DNA of 64,000 nt from Eledone cirrhosa (taxonomy: Eukaryota): positions 79,546,001-79,610,000 of the forward strand of contig OZ024745.1 in NCBI GenBank assembly GCA_964016885.1, given 5' to 3'. The position numbers and the translations under genes were made by a program. Positions 3,319 through 39,945 of this stretch are shown here, in pieces (the stretch's first letter is position 1; every line of letters begins with the position of its first letter). The notes under the pieces are model-generated. The model searched no databases. It saw only the letters and a list, made by a program, of their open reading frames with translations, and was not told the DNA's origin.

Positions 3319-6300
3319 TCTCTTTCCGTTGGACCTTCCTAAAAACTAACCTTCTAGTATTGTTATTAAACAATTATTCTAGAACCTTCCTGCATCTCGC
3401 TCGCAAACTTTGTAAACACTTTGCTCCTTCTCTCATACCCCGCCCCGCCTGATCGCAAGTATAAAATAAATCTTGCTGGCTCCCAACGACAGAATTTATC
3501 TATCAAACTATCTTACGGGCGATCTGTCGATTTTGAGAATGTAAGCAAAACCTTTCTTTTCTTTGTTTCCATAGTCTCCTCAATTAAGCAGTCTTTTAAA
3601 CTCTTATTTATACCACTCTAAAATTCAAATTCTCTGATTTTAAATTATTATTTTACATGTTTTTAATATGTCTCAATCTGTTGGATCCTTCCTAAAAACT
3701 AAACTTCTCCTAAAGTCACCCATTTCCTGCCCTACCACCCCTACACACCACCATTGCTATATGGTCCAACTCAGCGGCTTTAGTAAGTTCTCTAACAAAT
3801 CAGTATAGGAAAGTTACCACCCCGGTTATTACTCCTTAAGTTTAGACCTGTTTGATGGGTTGACTGCGGAAATTTGAAAAGTCTAAGCACTCAATGACAA
3901 TGTCACAGATAAAGATAAATTCACCTCCCGCTGCAAGACGAGAATACAAGGACCCCTCTGTATTTCAGACACAGATGACCAACAAAATCCCGTCTTCCAC
4001 ACCCTTCCCTGCTCCTCCAACCCATCCATCCCACCCTCCCAACTTCAGAGTTGGTACCATGAACGTAGGCACATTGAAAGGTCGCTCAAATGAGGTTGTA
4101 GAGATGCCACGTTGGACAACATAGTGATGGCTATGATGGAATCCATGGAGGTTGGAAATAGAAATGAGGAGGGCTTCAGAATCCTGGAATTCTGTGATGC
4201 AAATAGCCTAACTATCTGTAACACAAACTTTAAAAAACGTGAAAACCACTTGATCACCTATAGATCAGGGGAACACGCCAGCTAGATAGATTATATCCTT
4301 ACTAGAAGACGGGCCAAAATGTCTGTTGTAAACACTAAATCCCTCCCTCGTGAAGAATGCACCTCCCAACATAGCCTAGTAGTTAGTGACCTCATAGTCA
4401 GGAATAGACGTACTCGACGACAGAAGAGGCCTACCTTGAGAAGAATATGGAAGTTGAAGGACCCCATAGCCAGTGACAAATTTAAAAGCTTATTACTTGA
4501 TGCCTTTGACAATAAGGAAGAGCAATTAGAGATGTGGCAATATAGAGGAACAGTGGCAATCCTTGAAAGTGAAACTGCTGAAAGCAACGGATGAAATCTG
4601 TGGCTGGAGCAGACCTATTGGCAGGAGGAGAGTAACTTGGTGGTGGAACAGTAAGGTGGAAGAGACAATCAAGGCCAAAAAGCAGGCTTGGAAAGTATGG
4701 CAGGATGGGGGAAGTAGAGAGCACTATCAAGTGGCCAGGAGAGAAGCTAGGAGACAAGTGTACCTTGCAAAAAGGGTAGCAGAGGATAGAAAGTTCAAGC
4801 ATGTTCTACAACGTGAGGTGTTCAGGATTGCTAGACAATGTGTCAAGAAAAACCATGATATTGTCGGAGAGAAGTGTGTCCGCAATGATAATGGTGTACT
4901 TGCGCTCACTGATACTGATAAGAAGATAGCCTGGAAGTGTCACTACGAGAGACTATTAAATGAGGAGAATAAATGGGAAAAAGATAGTCTGCCCCAAATC
5001 GATCCAATAGAAGGACCAGCGGTGCAAGTTAAAGGTAGTATAATAAGTAAGGCAATCAAAGATATGAAGACAGGCAAGGCAGCTGGGCCTTCGGAGATAG
5101 TTGCTGAGATGTTGAAGGCATCTGGTATGGTGGGACACACTATGGTCACCCGTATAGTTAACCAAGTAATACAGAATGGGGTCATACCGAAAGACTGGCG
5201 TAGCACCATCATCATTAACTGCTACAAGGGTAAAGGGGATGCTCTAGATAGGGGAAACTATAGAGGCATTAAGTTAGTTGACCAGGTCATGAAGGTCACA
5301 GAAAGAGTTATAGCGCAACTAATCAGAGAGCGAATTGATCTAGATGAAATGCAGTTTGGGTTTGTGTCAGGTAAAAGTACCACAGACGCTCATTTCCTTG
5401 TACGACAACTACAAGAGAAGAACCTTGCTAAAAGTAAACCCCTCTACTTAGCTTTTGTAGACCTGGAGAAAGCTTTTGACAGAGTCCCTCGCTCCATTAT
5501 CTGGTGGGCTCTTAGAAAACTAGGTGTAGATGAATGGCTTGTGAGAGCTATACAAGCTATGTATAATGAAACAGTCAGTAAGGTTAGAATTAACAATGAA
5601 TATTGTGAAGAATTTAGTGTAAAAGTTTGTGTTCATCAAGGCTCTGTCCTTAGCCCCCTCTGTCCTTAGCCCTTCAGGCTATAACAGAGGAGTTCAAGAC
5701 CGGCTGCCATGGGAACTCCTATACACAGATGATCTAACACTCCTAGCTGAATCAATGGCTGAACTAAAGAAGAAATCCCAAACATGGAAGCATGGCCTAG
5801 AATCAAAAGGCCTTAAAGTTAACTTCTAAAGTTCTAGTTTGTAGAAAGGAAAATAGGGCACAGGTGCCCTCAGGGAAATGGCCATGCTCAGTGTGTAGGA
5901 AAGGAGTAGGCAGAAATTCCATTTTATGTCCCAAATGCAAAGTATGGGTTCATAAAAGATGTAGTGGGATCACAGGTAAACTATCTAAGAACGTAGACTT
6001 TATATGTGGCCAATGCTCAGTTGCAATAAGTAGCAAGTGTCCAAAGGATACTAGCTCCTTCTATTGCCCAGATGGTTCTATAGAAATAGTAGACACTTTC
6101 CGTTACCTGGGTGACGAAATCAGCAGTGGTGGAGGGTGCTCTGAAAGTACAGTAGCCAGAGTCAGAACGGGATGGAAAAAGTTCAGAGAGCTTATACCGC
6201 TGTTGGCCACAAAAGGTTTCTCTCTAAAAATGAAAGGCAGATTGTATGATGCCTGTATATGAACAGCTATGTTGCATGGCAGTGAGACATGGGCATTACG

Positions 6301-26021: not shown

Positions 26022-29000
26022 ATAATGAAAAATTGAACAGGGACAGAACAGAGAGGCAGTACAATAAATGTTTATTAAATTCACGCTCAGGAGAGTGGGG
26101 GGTAGGTGGGGGACGACGTTTCGGGCATAAGCCCTTCTTCAGGTGAGAAGTGTGTGGGAACAGAGTTCAAAAGGTGTGTAGGGGAGTGGTGGAGAGACAT
26201 ATAGCGAAAGGAAACGGTGCGAATGAAAAATTAACAAATAAAGACAAAAAATATAATAAATAAAAATAAAGCATGATCAAAATACAAGGAATGAGAAAAT
26301 TTGAAAATAAAGGCATGATCAAAATAAACTGAAATTAAAAGGGGGGTAAACAGGCGGTGGAAGGGTGTGAGGTGAGTAGGGGTGGTGGCGGGTGGAGTGG
26401 GGAGAGGGAGGCGGGGTGTCCGAGCGGGGAGGGCTGAAGGTGGTGTGTGTGGTTAGGTGTGCGTGTGTGTGTGTGTGTGTGTATGTGAAAGTGAGGGTTG
26501 GGGGAAGAACGGGGTTGCATGTTCAGGAAGGTGTGTGTGTGTGTGGGGGGGGGGGGGTGTTTTTGTGGGTCGAAGTGTCTGTGCGTGTGTGGATAGGGGG
26601 GTGGGGGGAGAGGAATCAGGAGGCTGAGGGTGTAAATATGTGGTGGGAAGCACGTGTGTGTGGTTTAAGCGTGTTGTGGGTGTGGGTGGCGTGTGGATAA
26701 AAAAATTTTTTTTTGGGGTGTGTGTGTGGGTGAGTTATATAGTTGATGGTGTAAGAGGATGGTTGAAAAATTGGTAAGTTTCACGGATGTTTGGAGATTT
26801 GGTTAGAAGTCAATTTCGCGTGTGGGTAATCCAAGAAGCGGTGGTCGGAAGAGGAGAGATGTGGGGTGCGCGCGCAACAGGAAGTGGTCAGCAGTGGGAG
26901 TGCTGTGGTCAGTTGGTGCAGAGAGGTGGTCGGAAGGGCATAGCAGCAGTCGGCGGAATGGTAGGGAGGCGAGGATGGGTAGGTGTGAGAGTTGGAGTGA
27001 GGAGGGTGTGTGTGTGTATTAGTAGGGGTGTTAGTGGGATGAGTGAGTGTGGAGCGGGGAGAGAAGGGTGTGTGTGGTTCTATGGAGGGAGTGTGGTGTA
27101 CTGGTGTGTGTGTAGTTTGGTGAAGAGGTGTTAGTGGGTGTTAGTATACGGGAGGTGGGGAGGGGTGGAATGCAGGTGTGAGTGGGGCTTAGTGGTGGTA
27201 GGGTGTGTAGAGTTGGTGGTGTACGAGGGTGTGTGGGTACGTGTGCGTGGGGTTGGGGGGTGTTAGTGATGTTAGTTGCGTGTGGGGTGGGTGGTGTAAG
27301 TGGGTGCGTGTGTGCGTGTGATAAGGAGGGGGGAGGAGGAGAAGAGGGGAGGGAAGGGATGTTAGTATGTTAGTTGGGGAAGGGTGGTCAGATGAGGGGT
27401 GGAGTGGAGGTGTTAGTATTGTTAGTGTGGGGTGGGCGGTGAAAAGGAGGGGTGTGTTAGTGGTGTGAGTGGGGGATAAGTGTGGGGGGAGGGGGGCGGT
27501 CGAACGCTAAAGGAATAAGGGTGGGGAGTTCAGGCCGGGGGGAGTGTGGGTCTGTAAGATGAAGATAGTGCGTTGTTCGACCGTAAGGCGATGGGCGGGT
27601 GTTCCGTGGCACTGGAGTAGGCCACAGACTGTGAGATGGCGTGCGGAGTGTCCAGGGCCACCAAAGTGGCGGGCGATGGGGGAACTGCCCCCGAGACGAA
27701 TATCACGGAGGTGCTCCGTGACTCGGTCCGCCAGGCGACGTCCCGTCTGTCCGACATAAGTCGCGCTGCACTCCGTGCAACGAAGTCCGTAGACTAGGTT
27801 GGAGGAGGTGCAGCGGAAGGCATGCCGGACCGAGAGAGAGTGGCCGTTGGGACCCTGGAAGGTGGTGGTGTTGGTGATGTGGGGACAGGTGTTGCAGCGG
27901 GGCCTAGAACAGGGGAAGGAACCGGGGGGGGGGGGAAACGGAGCGTGGGTTGGGGGGTAGGGAGCTGTGGACGAGGAGGGTGCGGAGATTGCGTGCGCGT
28001 TTGAAGGAGGGGAGTGGTGGGGTTGGGAAGATGTGGGAGGTGGAGGGGTCGGACTGGAGGCGTCGGAAGAGGCGGCGGATGGTGCGGTGGAGGGGTAAGG
28101 TGGAGGGGTGGTAGGTGATGGGGAAGGGGAGACGGTGGGTGGGTGTGCGGTGGTGTGGGGTGAGGGTGGTGGAGCGGGGGATAGCACGGGCGCGGGTGAG
28201 AGCGGTGTAGACGAGAGAGGGGGGTAACCTCTGCGGATGAAATGGCTGACTAGGGAAAGGGCCTGGGACTCGAAGTCAGCATCACGGCTACAGAGGCGGC
28301 GGATCCTGAGAAGTTGGGAGTAGGGAATGGAGAGTTTAGTGTGGGTGGGGTGGGAAGAGGTGAAGTCGAGGTAAGAGTGGGAGTCGGTGGGTTTGAAGAA
28401 GGCGGAGGTGACGAGGGAGTGGTGGGAGGGGTCGAAGGCGACGGAGATGTCTAAGAAGTGGACGTGGGTGGTGGAGATAGAGGTGGTGAAGTGGAGGGAG
28501 GGGTGGAAGGAGCAGAAGAAGGAGAGAAAGGAGTCGAGCTGTACTCGGGTGAGGGTCGTGGCTCCGATACAGTCGTCAATGTAACGACCGTACAGTTCGG
28601 GCGTGGGGCCGGTGTACTGGGCAAAGATTTGGGCCTCAACATGGCCAACAAAAAGGTTGGCATAGTTCGGGCCCATTCTTGTGCCCATGGCTACCCCCGT
28701 GACCTGTTGGTAAAACTCACCCGAGAAGGAGAAACAATTTAGGGTGAGGACCAGCTCGGCGAGGCGAAGGAGGGTGGGGGTGGAGGGAATGGGGGAGGGA
28801 CGAAGGTCGAGGTAGTGTTTGAGGGCGCGAAGGCCGTCGGCGTGGGGGATGACGGTATAGAAGGACTTGATGTCTAGGGTGAAGAGGAATGGCTGAGGGC
28901 CGGGTAGGTAGGTGAAGGAGTCAAAAAGGCGCAGGGCGTGGTTGGTGTCGGAGATGTGGGAGGGGAGGGTGGTGACAAGGGGGGCGAGGAGGGAGTCGAG

Positions 29001-29655
29001 AAAGGCGGAGATGAGTTCGGTGGGGCAGTTGCAAGCGGAGACGATGGGGCGGCCGGGGTTGTCGGGTTTGTTGAGTTTGGGGAGGAAGTAGATGGTGGGG
29101 GTGCCGGGGGTGCGGACGATGAGGTGGGAAGCGGTGGGGGGGGGGGAGGGGGAGGAGGCGATAAGGTCTTTGATGGTGGAGGAGACTAGTTGTTGGTAGA
29201 GGGGGGTGGGATCGGAGGGTAGAGGGCGGTAAAAGAGGGGGTTACAGAGCTGCCTGAGGGCTTCGGCCGTGTAGAGGTCCGCGCGCCATACCACCACGGC
29301 GCCTCCCTTGTCCGCCGGTTTGATGACGATGTCATCTCGGCTACGGAGGGAGCGGAGAGCGAGGAGTTCGCCCCGTGAGATGTTGTGCCGTTTGGAACGG
29401 TGGCGGAAGTCAAAACGATTTACTGCGCTACGGCTGGCATCGACGAAGGCGTCCAGGGTGCTAAATTGCCCTGGGGCCGGCGTCCAAGAAGATGGTCGTC
29501 GGCCCAGGGCGAGAAACGGGTCTGGGGCGTCCGGAGCCGGTGGCGTTCGGCTGAAATGTGCCTGTAGCTTAGTGCGTCGCACGAATCGCTCGACTTCCGT
29601 TCGGGTGCGGAACTCGTCGCTGAGCGGAGTGTGGGCTATGAAGCGAAGGCCTATA
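26022..29655 (-). mobile_element. Penelope-like retroelement (Neptune-type; RT + Zn linker + C-terminal GIY-YIG), 5'-truncated
   Basis: RT motifs KPADKGGAVVVW, PGRPIVS, LDIKSFYT, GVAMGTRMGPNYANLFV, RYIDD, FLD, SHP; linker CSRPRCNTC; EN VYGLRC..YVGQTGR..R..EH..HF..H..E..GLN. A long C-rich 3'UTR and pLTR with hammerhead end in (TA)n. Confidence 0.93.
27507..29655 (-). pseudogene. PLE RT/GIY-YIG ORF, 5'-truncated, with two compensating frameshifts
   Basis: The Pro/Ser-rich stretch at ~27935-28225 is an off-frame reading; the alternative frame gives FPITYHP..IRRLF..FKRARNLRTLLV. The first ~30 aa of the listed ORF come from the neighbouring LTR and flank. Confidence 0.8.
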
Positions 29656-29685
29656 GTAATAATAATAAATTTGAAGACTAAAATC

Positions 29686-31836
29686 TGTAGCGGTTGTCTC
29701 CCTTGTTTTGATTGGGATCTAGACGGGAGTTGGAACCCTTTCTGCAACTTCCGGTCAGAGCCCTATAAAACTAACAACTTTAAGCTTCCTTTCTCTCTTT
29801 GCCTTTTCGGCACCAGGTCAAGAGCCTCTCATTGGGCTCCGCCATTAATTTGGCCAACAGGCGCCTGGCCTTAGCCAGGCGTCCTCTGCCAGCCGCGTTT
29901 GCCTGGCAATCAAAACGGTAACTACTAACTTTGCTTCATTCTAACAACATCCTCATCTTTGACATGTCAAGTATACTATCTACCATTGTTAATTAAATAT
30001 TATACACACAAACCATGTCTCGTTTTGTTACATTCATACAACCCAGTAATCTCGCTATATTGGTAACCCTGACGTGATACGAACACGCAGCCGTTCATCG
30101 CTATAAGTGGTCACCCCCCCCCCAAAAAAAAAAGAAAAAAATAGCACATCTGGTTTTGTGAGTAACATTACGAATACACAGCAAATTTAGCGACAAACTA
30201 TGAAAATACTCAAGGACACGCACACACGCACATGTGGAATTCGCACAGACAGACTTTTTCTCTCACGCATCAATTAACTGTCGCATTTCACCAATATATA
30301 TATATGTTTCTCGTTTCTTACAACGAACACTTTCAAAACAAAAAAAACCAAAAACATTTCACGATATATATATATGTTTCTCGTTTCTTATAACGAACTC
30401 TTTCAAAACACACACAAAAAAAAAAAAGAAATTTGATATTCTTTAAAAAACATTTCAACAGGAACATTTATTTTCGATGAACCATTGCCTTTTTGTTCAT
30501 CGTTTTCTTCATCGTTCAAGTTTTTTGTTTTTTTCCAAAGTTCACACCAATAATTATGCTGAGTGAAGCCTTTCTTTTTCAGCATTGTCACTTTCAAAAT
30601 TGCACTATTCAAAATTGCACTATCATTTTCTCGCGCGTTAGAAATATTATTTTTTTCAACCTTGTATTGGCACGTGTAGGCAGCACAAATTCTCGATTCA
30701 CAGAGATGTCTCTACTCACAGACAGCCGCACGCCAGAGATAACATTTATCACCAGGGATTCTTCAGCCTTAAGCTATATTCTTCTATTTGCCGGTTTATA
30801 AATTTACAATGTAAATTTACCGTTGATAACCGCGCATTTATTAAGAATGCTTATTTCTCTGGTCGCTGGCCTCTTGACCCTTCCAGGTCAACGCATTCTC
30901 AACATCGACCATCAACTTCGGCTGCTATTTCTAGCACTTTGCGCAACTCATTTTTTCTAAAAAAATTTTTTTTTACTGTGAATTTAAACACCGAATACGC
31001 TCACTCAGCGAGACAACAGCAGCAGCAACAGCAATATAACAGCAACAGCAATACATCAATACAGCTTCACCAAAGCCAGAGAATTCATTTTTGCAGCACT
31101 CTTCCTGTGAGAAAATCCATTCGGAGGTTGGAAATTTCACGATATACCACATAACAGAAACCACCTGCATTCATTCTCTGGAACACACTTTCTTTCCTGC
31201 TGTCATGTGATTGCACACCTGTGAACTATATTTTGAACTTTGAGCTCTTCTATTACTTTTACTTTATTACATTGTATCTTTGGGTGATGGATAGATGGAT
31301 GTCCAGTCGTTCTCTGGCCAAGAGCGGTTGGCTACCTTGATATCTATCATTGATTTTTCCAAACATTCTTTTGTCGTAATTTTCATGCCTGTTACAACAT
31401 TCTCGCCAACTTGCTACATATTTTCATTTCGATTTTTATACACTAAAATTCTGGCGGGAGGTTATGTAGCGGTTGTCTCCCTTGTTTTGATTGGGATCTA
31501 GACGGGAGGTGGAACCCTTTCTGCAACTTCCGGTCAGAGCCCTATAAAACTAACAACTTTAAGCTTCCTTTCTCTCATTGCCTTTTCGGCACCTGGTCAA
31601 GAGCCTCACATTTGGCTCTGCCATTAATTTGGCCAACAAGCGCCTGGCCTTAGCCAGGCGTCCTCTGCCAGCCGCGTTTGCCTGGCAATCAAAACGGTAA
31701 CTACTAGCTTTGCTTCATTCTAACAACATCCTCATCTTTGACATGTCAAGTATACTATCTACCATTGTTAATTAAATATATCTACACAAACAATGTATTC
31801 CTTGTTACATTCATACAACCCAGTAATCTCGCTATA
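29686..31836 (+). mobile_element. Non-autonomous LTR retrotransposon with tRNA-Trp PBS (CsRn1/Kabuki-type signals)
   Basis: LTRs at 29686-30059 and 31465-31836 (TGTAGCG..CGCTATA); 4-bp TSD AATC (29682-29685, 31837-31840); PBS TGGTAACCCTGACGTGAT at 30061-30078; PPT GGCGGGAGG at ~31453; no recognisable coding capacity. Confidence 0.92.
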
Positions 31837-34160: not shown

Positions 34161-35131
34161 GTATATATACATTTTCTATTTGGGTTCAACGTAATCCTGT
34201 TATATAATTCTGCAAATAACACCTGATTAAATCGTCTAGCCTTGCATCGTAATCTGACGATAGGGCTGGGACATCTGAATATCTATAGTGCTTTCTCGGA
34301 ATTAAAATTCCGGCCTTCTGTTGTTTTAGTGAATACTTAATTCCGTTTCTACACCAATCACGGGATACATCATCTACGATGGTTGATTTGCTTATCGTAG
34401 AAAGAGAGTTCGTTTTTTGTTTTCCCTTTTTTCTGTGTTTTCTTCTTTTTAATGAGTTCGTATTCGCCGCCATCGGTCTGAATTGAATTTGGTGATTTGC
34501 TGTAGCTGTTACCGAGTTTGGTGTTAAACCGTGATCTCTGTTGCCACAGACGCTGTTGTTGTTTGTGTTGTGTCAGTAAGTCGGGGATCACCAGCTGTTG
34601 TGAGACGGAGAATACCGTTGCCTTTGGTTTCCTACAGAAAATGCATCCGAAGGCTGTTCCAAAAGTAAGGATCACCAATGTAGCGAGCAGGAATGTGAGT
34701 TGAGTATAGCGATGGAAGGAATTGGCTTGAGTTGTTGTTGTTCATTTGAGCGTGGCAGAGTTTGTAGTAGAGATTGTTGTTCGCTTGCTGGGTGATTATG
34801 CATGAGGTAAAAATTGTCCCACTGTGTGAAATGCCTATGAATAAACTGTGGATAGAAAAAGCTATCTCACTTACCGCTTTTCATAGGCGCCGCTAAATCC
34901 CATTGCTGGTTTCTCCTCTTCCACGTGCGTCCAACTCATTAACACCGGGAGCTGCCAAAACTCGCGTCCACACCGTTCCTGGTCACCACTAGAGAGAGAG
35001 GCCGATCTGCTGGCCCTTCCGGTCGAGCACCCTTCAGGCCAATCACCCTTCCGGTCAAGCACTCTTCCGGTCGAGCACTCCCCAGCTTCCGGCCACCGCA
35101 CGCCACACCATACCCACACGCCCCCCTGATC

Positions 35132-37990
35132 TCAGGGATCAATTTCCCCCTCGTCCTTCTGCATATGAAAGTCTGCTGTCCAGGTTGGTGGTTTGCGACT
35201 TCTTTGCGATCTCCGCAGTGTTGGGGCGGCACTTTGGGTTTCCTCTTCCTCGGCGTCCGTTGACACAGTAATTCTACGGACATCCAGGACATGACGTGGT
35301 ACCTCGTCCACGGACACATTGTTCTGGGAATTTACGGCCGTCACCGTTCCCCTTCCCAATTGAGATGTGCAACGTGCATCTGGGGGCTTAACCCAGACTT
35401 CTTCGCCCACCTGCACGAATGCACTCTCTCTCCCCACTGGCCGTTGTGGTGGCGTGCACGGGTGCCGCCACTCGTATCTGAATACTGCTCTGTGTGGCAC
35501 CGATTCCTCGACCTGTCCCACCCGAGGGGACATGTTGTACCAGAACACTGCCTCCATTGGTGAGATATGGCCCCGCTCCGCCATTGCCTTGATCATCCGG
35601 TGGTGTCGCTCCACAATTCCATTCCCGCTCGGCCTGTGCGCTGCTCTGAAGAAACGGTCCACCTTCCATCCATCAAGCATCTCCCTCAGCGCCCCCGAGC
35701 GGAACGCTGCGCTGTTGTCCATCAGCAGTTCGTCCACAGGGCCCCGCTCCAAGAACACCTCTCTCAACGTCCGCATGATTTCCTCGGCCGTTCCAGTCTT
35801 CATCTCCCTCCATATCGCCATCCGTCCTGGTCCACAGTCGACCATCGAGAGGTACGTTCCCTGTCGGTAGTGCGTTACATCCACCGCCAATCGCTTCCAG
35901 TTGCGATCCACCGGGAGGCTTCGCGTTTCGTGCACACCCGGGGCGGGATCAATGGACTGACATCGGACGCAGCCTCTAACCACCCTTTGAACACTGTGTC
36001 TGTTAACGTCCGAGTCGATTCTCCTGGCTAGGAACAGGCTCCTATCCACTCCCATGTTGTGCATGTCATGCAATCCTTTCAGATCCGACTCGGTCAGCCG
36101 ACACACGGCAGCTATCTCATCTTCTACCTCCTCCGGCGCTTCCATCCAGGCTTTCTTCACCCTAGTTAAGACGTCCGCCCTATTTTTCTCTGACGGCACG
36201 AAAACTACGCTCAGCATCAGGTCGAACTCGGTGGCCAACTCTCCTAAAGTTCCCAGGCGGCGCTTTATCAGCATCTCCGCGACCCATCTCGTTCGCACTC
36301 TCTTCTCACTGGTGAGCACTGATCTCACCCATCCGAGTACAGTAGCCGAGTCGGTGCGTATCTCGATGGTGCGCAGTCCCCACCTCAGGGCGAGGTTCAC
36401 CCCTCTCAACACTGCGTCCAGTTCGGCCACATTGATGTGGTTGCAGTCGTCCTTCTTCCTAAGCCAGGCTGCATCCTCGACCTCAACACCTCCTATCTCC
36501 AACGTGACACCCAGCGCTATGCTGCTGGCATCGCACCATACGGTCCCGCTCTGCGATTTGGGAACATACCAGCGTCCCCGCACTGGGTCGTCGGCCTTCA
36601 CCCTCCCCACGATCTCCTGCATCATGGCCACCGTCCTCTCTCCCACTCTGTCACTCCAAGTCACCTCTCCCGCTCGTCTCTTGACATAGCTGCATGCCGT
36701 CCGGAGCCACCCTGCAATCGGGTAGTGACCCACCAACTTTCCACACACCGAGAAAAGCTCCCGCCTACTCGTACTTGGGCCCAGTTCTGGAACTTCATTT
36801 CCCCTCTGGAATACCAAGACGCCCGTCATGTCTCGCCGTAGCCTAAGTCCCAGCGCGGCTCCTCCCTCCAACGCTTCTGACAGCTTCGCAGCCAGTCCAT
36901 ACCCCTGTAAATGGCTTGTGACCTCCGCCGCCGACACCACAGACTCGTCCACTAGGATGTCGTCAATGTAGGAGTTAGTGGCCCTCTTCATCTTGTCGGC
37001 CTTTCCCAGAATGGTCTTTAGGACCGTCGCTATGATCTTCGGTGCGGAGCTCAGCCCGAAACCGAGCCTGGTCAGGCAATATGTCCGGCCCTTATACCTG
37101 ACCAGCTGATACTGCCAGAGCTTCTCATCTATATGCAATTGCAAGTATGCCGACATTAGATCTACGATTGCTGAACCCCCCGTCATGCGTCTCCACTCAC
37201 GCAGGGTTTCCCCACAGACATCCGTGACCTCGCCACCCGTGTGGCATGACACGTGCTCGTTCAGCTCCCGAAAGTCCAGCACCGGCCTCACCTTGTTCTT
37301 CGTTGGTTGCGCCACCGCCATTAACGGCAATACTCCGCACTTCACCTTCTCTTTCCAGGGAAGCAGTATGCCCTCCTCAATCCATCTCTCTACCTCTCAC
37401 TCGAACTCGCTCCTACTGTTTCCCTTCAATGTGTGTTGATAGCAGCCCACTTTGGTCTTCAGTGTTGGTGGTTCTCCCTTCCAGTACCACTCAACAACCC
37501 ATCGCTGCCCATCGAACACGGCCTTGAAGTCTTTGTTCTGCACAGTGTAAGCGGGGTATTTCTCCTCGTGGGCCTTCTGGTTCTCCTGTCGCGTACTCAC
37601 AGCGCATACCGATGCAGCGCCGCCAAACGACACACCGACGTTGTTCACTGTGACGCCTCCTAGACGGCCAATTGCGTCCATGCCCATAACCACGCCGATC
37701 CCATCCACCACGTTGTCAACTACGATGGCAGAAAGCCTTATTTTCCTTCCCCGTACCGCTATCTCCACCTCGCTGCGACCTCGGCATTCAATTTTCCTGT
37801 CGACGACTGCCCTTACACTGCTCTTCCCTCTCCACTTCTGCGCCACCCCCGCGGTTACCAGTGTCGTCGTACAGCCCGTGTCCACGAGGGCTCGCTGTGC
37901 CTTTCCTCTCACGAAGACTTCCACCACGGGCAGCGCCTCTACTCGTAAGGGACAACTACCGGCGCAGTAGTTCCCCTTGGATCGTTTCCC
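35132..37990 (-). CDS. pol: Gypsy Pol (PR-RT-RNaseH-IN) in the -1 frame, with one in-frame TGA at 37397-37399
   Basis: ALVDTGC; RPVLDFRELN, VDLMSAYLQL, GFGLSSAP, YIDDILV; CDASS, AELDAV, RTDS; H..CVRC, LAVDV, MDNS, GIVERHH. ORFs 37397-37927 and 35132-37345 share a frame (EFE*EVERWIEEGILLPW). Confidence 0.9.
37933..37990 (-). promoter_or_regulatory. -1 ribosomal frameshift signal: G GGA AAC plus a predicted H-type pseudoknot
   Basis: Slippery heptamer at 37984-37990 is in the gag frame; 5-nt spacer; stem AAGGGGAACUAC/GUAGUUGUCCCUU; loop GCGCC pairs with downstream GGCGC. Confidence 0.82.
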
Positions 37991-38697
37991 TGGTCGCAGT
38001 TAGTAGCGATGTGGCCTGGTCGCTTACACCGGTAGCATATTATTTCCGGCCTTGACTCTCTACAGTCTCTAGCCATGTGCGGGCCCTGGCACCTAAAACA
38101 GCGACCTCTAAACGTTCGCGGGCGACCGCGTGCCGTGGTTGCCTCCCTTTCACCATTTCGCTGCCAGCTGTCTTGAGCCTCTGTAGTTGCTATCGCCGCG
38201 ACACTCTTCTTGGCATCTTCTGCTATGATCCGGGCTTGTTCCACCAGTGAACACATTTCCATTTCTTTGTAACCCGGGACTTGCTGCAGTTTCACCGCTA
38301 TGTCGTCTGGAAATCCATTTATGAACGCCAACCGCACCGTGCGTTCGCATTCCACCTGATATCCAGCCAATATAGCCAATCGCCGTATTTCCGCTGCGAA
38401 AATGTCAACGCGTTCACCGTTCCATCTAATTCTTGCCAGCTTAGCAAAATCGGCTAACGGTCCCCCTGCGAACGCTTCCATCATGCGCCTCTCAATCTTT
38501 TGCGCATCTCTTTGGCTGTGTTCATTCAACTCAAGGAAGAGTACCAACGCGCCCCCCTCGAGGTACAGTGCCATGAGGCCAGCCACATCTATCTTCTGTA
38601 AGCTTGCGACCAGCCGGAATTTTCGCAGCCAAGCGACAACATCGCCTTTACCGGTAAATGCCCTAATCGCTTCGCTCGTTCGTAGTCTCGTCGCCAT
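37939..38697 (-). CDS. gag: Gypsy Gag with two Zn knuckles
   Basis: 252 aa; knuckles CFRCQGPHMARDC and CYRCKRPGHIATNC. Confidence 0.9.
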   Translation of the reverse strand: MATRLRTSEAIRAFTGKGDVVAWLRKFRLVASLQKIDVAGLMALYLEGGALVLFLELNEHSQRDAQKIERRMMEAFAGGPLADFAKLARIRWNGERVDIFAAEIRRLAILAGYQVECERTVRLAFINGFPDDIAVKLQQVPGYKEMEMCSLVEQARIIAEDAKKSVAAIATTEAQDSWQRNGEREATTARGRPRTFRGRCFRCQGPHMARDCRESRPEIICYRCKRPGHIATNCDQGNDPRGTTAPVVVPYE

Positions 38698-39945
38698 ATC
38701 CTAATTTGTCTTGCGGTACGTGATAAAAAAAACCCAACAGACTCCTCTCTGTTTTTCCGGTAGCTTTTTTTTTTTCTTCTTTTTTTCTTTCAATCAGATC
38801 TCAGTTTCCAGTGCCGAAATAGCTTGTGGTTAGAAAAAGCTATCTCACTTACCGCTTTTCATAGGCGCCGCTAAATCCCATTGCTGGTTTCTCCTCTTTC
38901 TCGTGCGTCCAACTCATTAACACCGGGAGCTGCCAAAACTCGCGTCCACACCGTTCCTGGTCACCACTAGAGAGAGGCCGATCTGCTGGCCCTTCCAGTC
39001 GAGCACCCTTCCGGCCAGCACCCTTCCGGTCAAGCACTCTTCCGGTCGAGCACTCCCCAGCTTCCGGCCACCGCACGCCACACCATACTCACATAAACAA
39101 ATAAAACATGATCGCAACTAAAATACATTTACGAGGCTATCAAGGACAATGTAATGAAAACAAGACTTAAGTTGTTGTGATATATGCGTGTGTGCAATGG
39201 TGCAAAATATGGTATTTACCGTACTTCTGGTATTTACCGTACTTCGTTTGTCTGACAGTGAGAGAAAGATCAAGAGAGAGAAAGAGGGTGAGGAGGAAGA
39301 GAGAGAGTGTGAGAAAGCCCGACAGGGATCTGTGTGAGATTTTTTTTACTACATCTTAACTGGTTGAAATCATTTGTGCAACTCCTTGCTTTGACTCCGC
39401 AAGTTGGCTATTTCTCAGAATCACACATCCTGTTTCCAGAACTTGAGAATAGACAGATGGTGTTTTCGATGTTAAAATCGTAGACGTCTAAAAAAACGAT
39501 TACGATAGAAACTTATCTATGAGGCCACACAAAGTCAAGCTTTTGGTGGCCGCTTGATAGAGCGAATGAAACTCTAGTGAAGAGAGTGTCAAATTATTCC
39601 CCCCGTCCCCACACACACATATTCGAAATATGGGGCGGACAAAGGAAAAAACCATGGAAAGATACACACACACACACATATATATATATATAACTATAAA
39701 TATAATATATATATATATATATATATTTGGATTTAATGCTCTGAAATAGCGATATATATGTGAAGACAAACATAGAATATTCGAAAATATTCTGTATGTT
39801 TATAATAAACATTTTGAAGACCCAATCGCTTTTTATCGAGAATCTCAAATTGTAATACGTGACGTATTCTATTCTATAGCGATTGGGTCTTCAAAATGTT
39901 TATTATAAACATACAGAATATTTTCGAATATTCTATGTTTGTCTT

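Follow-up and report, generated by a model that had tools for sequence, protein, structure and literature searches.

Which RNA primes the reverse transcription of an LTR retrotransposon that shows no TGG start behind its 5' LTR? The question is raised by a 4,247-nt element on the minus strand of the window, that is, the whole stretch of 64,000 nt of Eledone cirrhosa DNA analysed here. On the sequence evidence, the 12 nt that follow the LTR are very probably a primer site, the primer being a piece from the 5' end of a tRNA, which in this host is tRNA-Phe.

The element and the 12 nt behind its 5' LTR

The element is flanked by a 5-base target-site duplication (GTTTA on the element strand; 39094..39098 on the 5' side, 34842..34846 on the 3' side), and has the direct TG...CA LTRs and the polypurine tract of an LTR retrotransposon. 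The 5' LTR (269 nt, 38825..39093) and the 3' LTR (272 nt, 34847..35118) were 96.3% identical over 272 nt in a self-BLAST comparison, and a polypurine tract region (35119..35133) adjoins the latter. Gag, protease, RT, RNase H and DDE integrase were all identified. The gag frame (252 aa, 37939..38697) encodes two CCHC-type knuckles and overlaps the start of the pol frame. The aspartic protease part of pol (37397..37999) is separated from the RT by an in-frame stop in the window copy, and the remainder of pol (35132..37396) comprises the RT with its catalytic motif YIDD, a DUF7047 domain, RNase H and the integrase in this order; the acidic motifs of RNase H were seen in the translated Pol. All of these features lie on the minus strand. 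Two further RVT_1 frames in the window, at 4530-5669 (+) and 27507-29762 (-), probably belong to non-LTR elements.

The family of the window element comprised 1,315 candidates in the 3.0-Gb host genome, 40 of which were scored. Among the 16 copies with two LTRs, the LTR pairs were 86-99% identical. An exact 5-base duplication flanked 12 of these copies, one had a duplication of 7 bases within a TA run, and none was clear for the remaining three.

On the element strand, the 5' LTR ends in ...CCACA at 38825 and is followed without a spacer by AGCTATTTCGGC (38824-38813). This boundary is fixed by the second LTR and by the GTTTA duplication. The first-pass annotation had reported the lack of a TGG start and the zero spacing, both of which are present in the window, and had read the 12 nt as the exact complement of tRNA-Phe nt 1-12, a reading for which a comparison with host tRNA-Phe was named beforehand as the test. 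The host tRNA-Phe(GAA) genes proved to have the 5' end predicted. A 19-nt pattern opening with the complement of the 12-mer had 234 matches in the host genome and none for the control pattern, and ARAGORN placed the start of a tRNA-Phe(GAA) gene at the matched base in nine of the 10 loci fetched, the tenth containing another such gene. Among 58 tRNA gene calls from 26 overlapping host loci, 16 tRNA-Phe calls matched the putative primer-binding site (38813..38824) from position 1 at 12/12 bases and six at 11/12, whereas the best non-Phe isotypes in this partial host tRNA set reached at most 8/12. The 12-mer was the only exact complement of at least 9 nt between tRNA-Phe and the whole element, and tRNA nt 13 (C) is unpaired with the last base of the LTR.

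Two extensions of the pairing were considered and rejected. A second tRNA-Phe pairing site in the element came down to one chance-level 8-mer, and inspection spoke against a duplex that continues from tRNA nt 13 into the LTR end.

The host genes have peculiarities of their own. At loci L034-L040 (G000:C4, from about 117.36 Mb), tRNA-Phe and tRNA-Asn genes are repeated in tandem with a period of ~1.26 kb, and many of the units carry substitutions. At L351-L366, one and the same 5' end is combined with different anticodons in several host tRNA-like genes, like in a tRNA-derived SINE family.

Conservation of the site among copies and families

Conservation was assessed both within the window family and across related elements. 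The site was exact in 21 of 30 window-family copies (the best 30 of the 40 scored) and carried one substitution in the other nine, with a spacer of 0 in all. The single substitutions fit decay after insertion.

Alignment searches with Pol yielded 76 loci in metagenome contigs and two in a prokaryote collection. Of these 78 loci, 43 had no gag match and one started inside gag, which left 34 usable. CAAGCTA occurred near gag (700 bases before to 60 after the gag start) in 33 of the 34, where a given 7-mer would be expected by chance in ~5% of such intervals. The 33 loci represent 27 further families with unrelated LTRs; with the window family, this makes 28. A canonical TGG site was found in none of the copies and families examined, and the expectation that the site would be kept directly at the LTR was borne out by the 12-mer, with at most one change, in 30/30 copies and by a site of the same kind behind CA in 33 of the 34 loci.

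The CAAGCTA search fixed positions 1-5 of the site, and only later positions were free to vary. Position 6 was identical in 28 of 28 families and positions 9-12 in 27, 28, 26, and 27, respectively. Positions 7-8, which face acceptor-stem nt 6 and 5, read TT in 14 families, CG in eight, CC in three and CA in three. Conservation dropped to 16/28 and 9/28 at positions 13-14, which places the end of the conserved block opposite tRNA nt 1. Within the LTR, conservation over the 28 families did not extend beyond its last few bases. A site mimicking the 3' acceptor strand of a tRNA with its discriminator and CCA was also considered and rejected, with A at 16/28 and C at 6/28 for positions 13-14.

The LTR edge was confirmed independently of the motif in L204, which has two LTRs, and in the CC-variant family L197, whose contigs depart from the reference at base 171 in 4/4 runs. 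L197 was present in jellyfish metatranscriptome runs; as contigs, these show neither level nor strand. The one usable locus without the site was L254, in which the junction appears, by eye, to be deleted. L237 and L238, which are one family, agreed with the CA variant at 10 of 12 positions, with mismatches at the two facing tRNA nt 1-2, and L240 was mismatched at one position. These mismatches in L237/L238 and L240 are not explained by strict re-copying from one tRNA.

In the host genome itself, a pattern excluding the usual LTR end of the window family found 92 matches with the host-type 12-mer (control 1). The 30 of these that were examined fell into eight LTR groups, with gag behind the site in 26. 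In five copies at L345-L349 (G000:C25), the 5' LTR is missing roughly its last 32 nt and the 12-mer is retained; the loss is apparently a short-repeat deletion.

Self-priming was weighed against these data. The first-pass annotation had offered a U5-leader hairpin as an alternative, and such a hairpin can fold in the window family: a U5 arm (38837..38847) can form 11 pairs with the site, G-U pairs included, at a predicted energy of about -10.4 kcal/mol, compared with -18.7 kcal/mol for the tRNA duplex. In the L257 family, a 12-nt run, mostly G-U, exceeds all 60 shuffles. The U5 arm is not kept lineage-wide, however, and the 10-nt pairing run in U5 of the window family was equalled by 15% of shuffles. 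For 26 of 27 families, pairing with the upstream 300 nt was no better than in shuffles, the best Watson-Crick run being 7 nt. Spliced joints reached a p-value of 0.05 or less in 1/34, with a best run of 9 nt. Over the 30 copies, the U5 arm varied at 18 of 300 positions and the site at nine of 360, and no matched change was seen. A self-primer would also drift with the LTR, whereas the site is constant although the LTRs are unrelated; what has been conserved is the match to the tRNA, not the hairpin. We therefore regard priming from a U5 hairpin, a Tf1-type 5' end or an LTR splice junction, with a tRNA match that arose by chance, as extremely improbable. The hairpin may regulate access to the site in the window family.

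In the window family, a splice-donor-like site (38847..38855, minus strand) precedes the LTR end by 28 nt. Only some related families have one: L195, L372 and L373 carry it too, the overall distance from the LTR end being 20-28 nt. Splicing from it would take the primer site out of the message.

The conserved block could also have a partner or a role other than a tRNA-Phe primer. Another RNA might end in the same 12 bases, or tRNA-Phe might be bound for packaging, dimer formation or translation control, with priming by some other means. Such roles gain some support from the short leaders of many families, which place the site close to the gag start codon. When the 12-mer was sought with a T run behind it, as at a polymerase III end, seven places came up, of which five were antisense element copies and two had no gag behind; a dedicated small RNA with such an end was not found. 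The site abuts the LTR without a spacer, exactly at the required primer end, and no TGG site is found there, which argues against a role apart from priming. We consider this group of explanations improbable.

A predicted route of priming

Priming by a very short 5' piece of tRNA-Phe, as the first-pass annotation had suggested, is thus the reading that gains support from the host tRNA 5' end, the lack of TGG and the conservation of the tRNA match. As to how the piece would arise, our analysis leans slightly towards a 12-nt 5'-terminal piece of tRNA-Phe that would prime the minus strand once the element's own RNase H has released it. The site is complementary to the 5' strand of the acceptor stem, nt 8-9 and most of the 5' strand of the D stem (together nt 1-12). 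The element RNA would invade the 5' strand of the tRNA, the zinc knuckles of Gag assisting, and the tail of the tRNA from nt 13 onward would stay unpaired at the edge of the LTR. By analogy with Tf1, RNase H would cut the RNA at the edge of the duplex, in trans, leaving a 3'-OH on U12, or on G10 should integrase later trim two bases. A search for LTR-LTR junctions, which would reveal untrimmed cDNA ends, found none. The RT would extend the primer into U5, and plus-strand synthesis would run off the primer 5' end, regenerating exactly 12 bases. By such run-off copying, the site would be reset to the tRNA of the current host.

RNase H is preferred as the cutter because the Tf1 enzyme acts in cis on a duplex of the same geometry, formed by 11 bases at the 5' end, and cuts it between nt 11 and 12 (PMC7175516). 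The Tf1 cut is reported to depend on a complex mRNA structure (titles cited in PMC4600332); a conserved RNA fold was not found in the lineage studied here.

The same site and primer would also result if the host made the piece: cleavage of the tRNA in the D region would yield a 5' fragment that anneals, and its few unpaired 3' bases would be trimmed to nt 12. Such a supply, the main rival explanation, agrees equally well with all of the sequence evidence, and we nevertheless rate it as rather unlikely. Many tRNA nucleases leave a 3' phosphate, which is not extendable. One and the same fragment would have to be supplied in molluscs, crustaceans and the hosts in the jellyfish samples. Fragments of tRNA 5' ends that arise by a cut in the D region do exist, with Dicer responsible for some and unknown nucleases for others, but the reported cuts lie in the D loop, past nt 12 (PMC4307339), so that a trimming step is needed.

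The tRNA might even stay uncut, with the RT initiating in the manner of a retron, from the 2'-OH of whichever internal base of the tRNA stands where the duplex ends. Retron RTs prime from a 2'-OH, and such initiation would account, without a nuclease, for pairing that ends inside the tRNA; the RT of the lineage is, moreover, distant from known LTR RTs. With RT, RNase H and integrase, its Pol is nevertheless composed like that of LTR elements, for which we know of no 2'-OH priming, and we regard this explanation as very improbable.

With a cut 5' piece of tRNA-Phe as the predicted primer, the lineage can be compared with known systems. One of these is half-tRNA priming, which is also used by Ty5. 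The half-tRNA elements (copia, Osser, Bryco, Gymco-II, Bianca) likewise employ a 5' tRNA fragment with an internal 3' end at the LTR edge, but there tRNA-Met or tRNA-Ile is cut in its anticodon stem, and the elements belong to Ty1/copia only (PMC6317226). In the window lineage, by contrast, the site pairs with nt 1-12 of tRNA-Phe and has no complementarity to the anticodon-stem region, the cut is predicted in the D stem, and the integrase comes after RNase H. In Tf1/Tf2, Tj1 and the Tf1/sushi group, an 11-base 5'-terminal RNA pairs with the site and is cut by RNase H at 11/12 (PMC7175516; PMC4600332), a geometry and length that match the site of the window lineage. The Tf1 primer is the element's own mRNA, whereas the partner here would be a host tRNA in trans, there being no family-wide self-complement. 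Canonical priming from a tRNA 3' end, as in most Ty3/Gypsy elements, BEL/Pao elements and retroviruses, goes with the same LTR-site-gag-pol-PPT-LTR layout, TG...CA ends and 5-base duplication, but with a TGG start that the window lineage lacks; in host Gypsy controls, read by eye, TGG stood within 7 nt of the LTR in nine of 14 loci. Judged by its sequence, the element is one that works like a half-tRNA-primed element with a Tf1-like geometry and falls under neither definition.

The variation of the site was examined with regard to the resetting that run-off copying would bring about. Pairs of families from the same assembly agreed at positions 7-8 in 10 of 12 cases (shuffle mean 3.8, p-value 0.001), with six of the 12 pairs falling within clades of related elements. 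A quick tree was built from 31 rows of Pol, with three short rows left out; on it, the site variant changed at least nine times (minimum five), and the row nearest to the window carried CC. In the window's own genome, a C-variant pattern had one match (control 3), which was a mutated copy of the window family. The pattern used to look for exact gene starts in the host covered the CG, CC and L256 variants and found none. Taken together, the variation would fit a site reset by each host's tRNA.

A 14-mer scan of viral contigs returned 120 stretches. The complements of the variants in phage contigs start prokaryote-type tRNA-Thr, Ile, Met and Leu genes, with tRNA-Phe in one call over 30 loci. As the complements open other isotypes too, the variants need not mean Phe. 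Phage tRNAs with variant starts, being mostly Thr, were dismissed as a guide to eukaryote hosts.

A survey from 2019 distinguished three types of LTR primer, namely whole tRNAs, half tRNAs cut in the anticodon stem and self-primers (PMC6317226). A 12-base 5'-terminal tRNA piece would be a fourth type. Its geometry would combine the half-tRNA route with that of Tf1 and would open the identity of the cutter to direct test. We found no description of this route in the literature searched, a body that lies apart from Repbase Reports and most subscription papers, nor in passages of PMC4600332, PMC8220671 and PMC13524379. The feature is real and lineage-wide, and it is probably a new form of LTR priming. 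Primer-site pipelines that look only for tRNA 3' ends (as in PMC6317226 and PMC13524379) would score the lineage as having no primer site, which may explain the oversight. Fragments from tRNA 5' ends would find a target in the site as well; silencing work, among the papers listed, has concerned 3' fragments.

Placement of the lineage

The element had been labelled Gypsy in the first-pass annotation, a label that neither profile nor BLAST tests supported. At E 0.01, the 32 Pol proteins of the alignment gave no match to the Gypsy RNase H profile (PF17917/PF17919), a profile that finds 150 elements over its cut-off in this host. In BLASTP searches of RT-RNase H against 11 host Gypsy proteins, the best E value was 2e-4, compared with 1e-56 between two Gypsy types. 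The order PR-RT-RNase H-IN is that of Ty3/Gypsy (Metaviridae) but is not diagnostic, because it is common to BEL/Pao, retroviruses and Kuafu. Structure matches to the lineage Pol were 9-18% identical. Fold searches with a predicted model (pTM 0.51) gave distant retroviral and caulimoviral matches only, and the top sequence matches among solved structures were retroviral integrases. A Gypsy placement thus appears doubtful.

Other known groups were considered as well. Peptidase_A17 (PF05380) and related profiles, used as the BEL/Pao test, were absent from the 16 families matched by the 32 Pol members; a BEL/Pao reference was sought in the host genome and none was found. The Ty1/copia traits of an integrase before the RT and of RVT_2 were absent. 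By eye, we take the RT and RNase H motifs to resemble those of DIRS, but the element has a DDE integrase and direct LTRs instead of a tyrosine recombinase and split or inverted repeats.

Kuafuorterviridae (Troyka), described by Gong and Han in 2024, are likewise a neglected animal LTR lineage with the order PR-RT-RNase H-IN that was filed under Gypsy (PMC11673190), but the window lineage does not belong to them. Their RTs carry IADD, VADD or LADD, the elements are mostly 5-6 kb long, and Troyka is reported to make 3-base duplications (a title cited in PMC11673190), whereas the window lineage mostly has YIDD or YVDD, a length of ~4.1-4.3 kb and a 5-base duplication. Among 120 homologs, the pattern picked YIDD in 63 (as in the window) and YVDD in 11, with no match in 20, and it picked none of the three Kuafu motifs. 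Five motifs of the lineage were absent from the text of the Kuafu supplement (PMC11673190), a text with gaps and cut lines. The Saci2/lennie Gypsy clade of flatworms shares with the lineage LTRs of the form TGT...ACA and family-specific primer sites (PMC12471100). It differs in its 4-base duplication, its length of 4.7-5.2 kb, its Gag-Pol of ~1,400 aa in most families and its named primer tRNAs, Leu, Gly and Lys (PMC12471100), and is set apart here by description, not by sequence.

The lineage occupies Atlas clusters of its own, which bear automatic names only, and DUF7047 was present in 32 of 32 Pol proteins. It is a large lineage, which at an E value of no more than 1e-30 comprised 1,285 cluster representatives, fragments included. 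The named relatives came from octopods, sea hare, mantis shrimp and porcelain crab, with one family in jellyfish samples. Viral contig scans found no relative, and a gag scan of metagenomes gave no matches. The lineage may be an unnamed LTR superfamily. More broadly, we propose a large, unnamed, DUF7047-bearing superfamily outside Gypsy, BEL/Pao, copia and Kuafu that would prime by a fourth route, invading the 5' end of tRNA-Phe, using its own RNase H to cut behind nt 12 and re-copying the piece in each cycle, such that the site follows the host tRNA. This combined proposal is tentative, plausible but short of probable.

Two minor observations concern the distribution of lineage sequences. A 3-kb contig in a bacterial metagenome-assembled genome (L191) encodes a lineage Pol with 43% identity and is probably host contamination. 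A GATCA-like word stands directly before the polypurine tract in many families that are unrelated to one another, among them the window family (35119-35133) and L193, L200, L207, L226, L227, L235 and L237.
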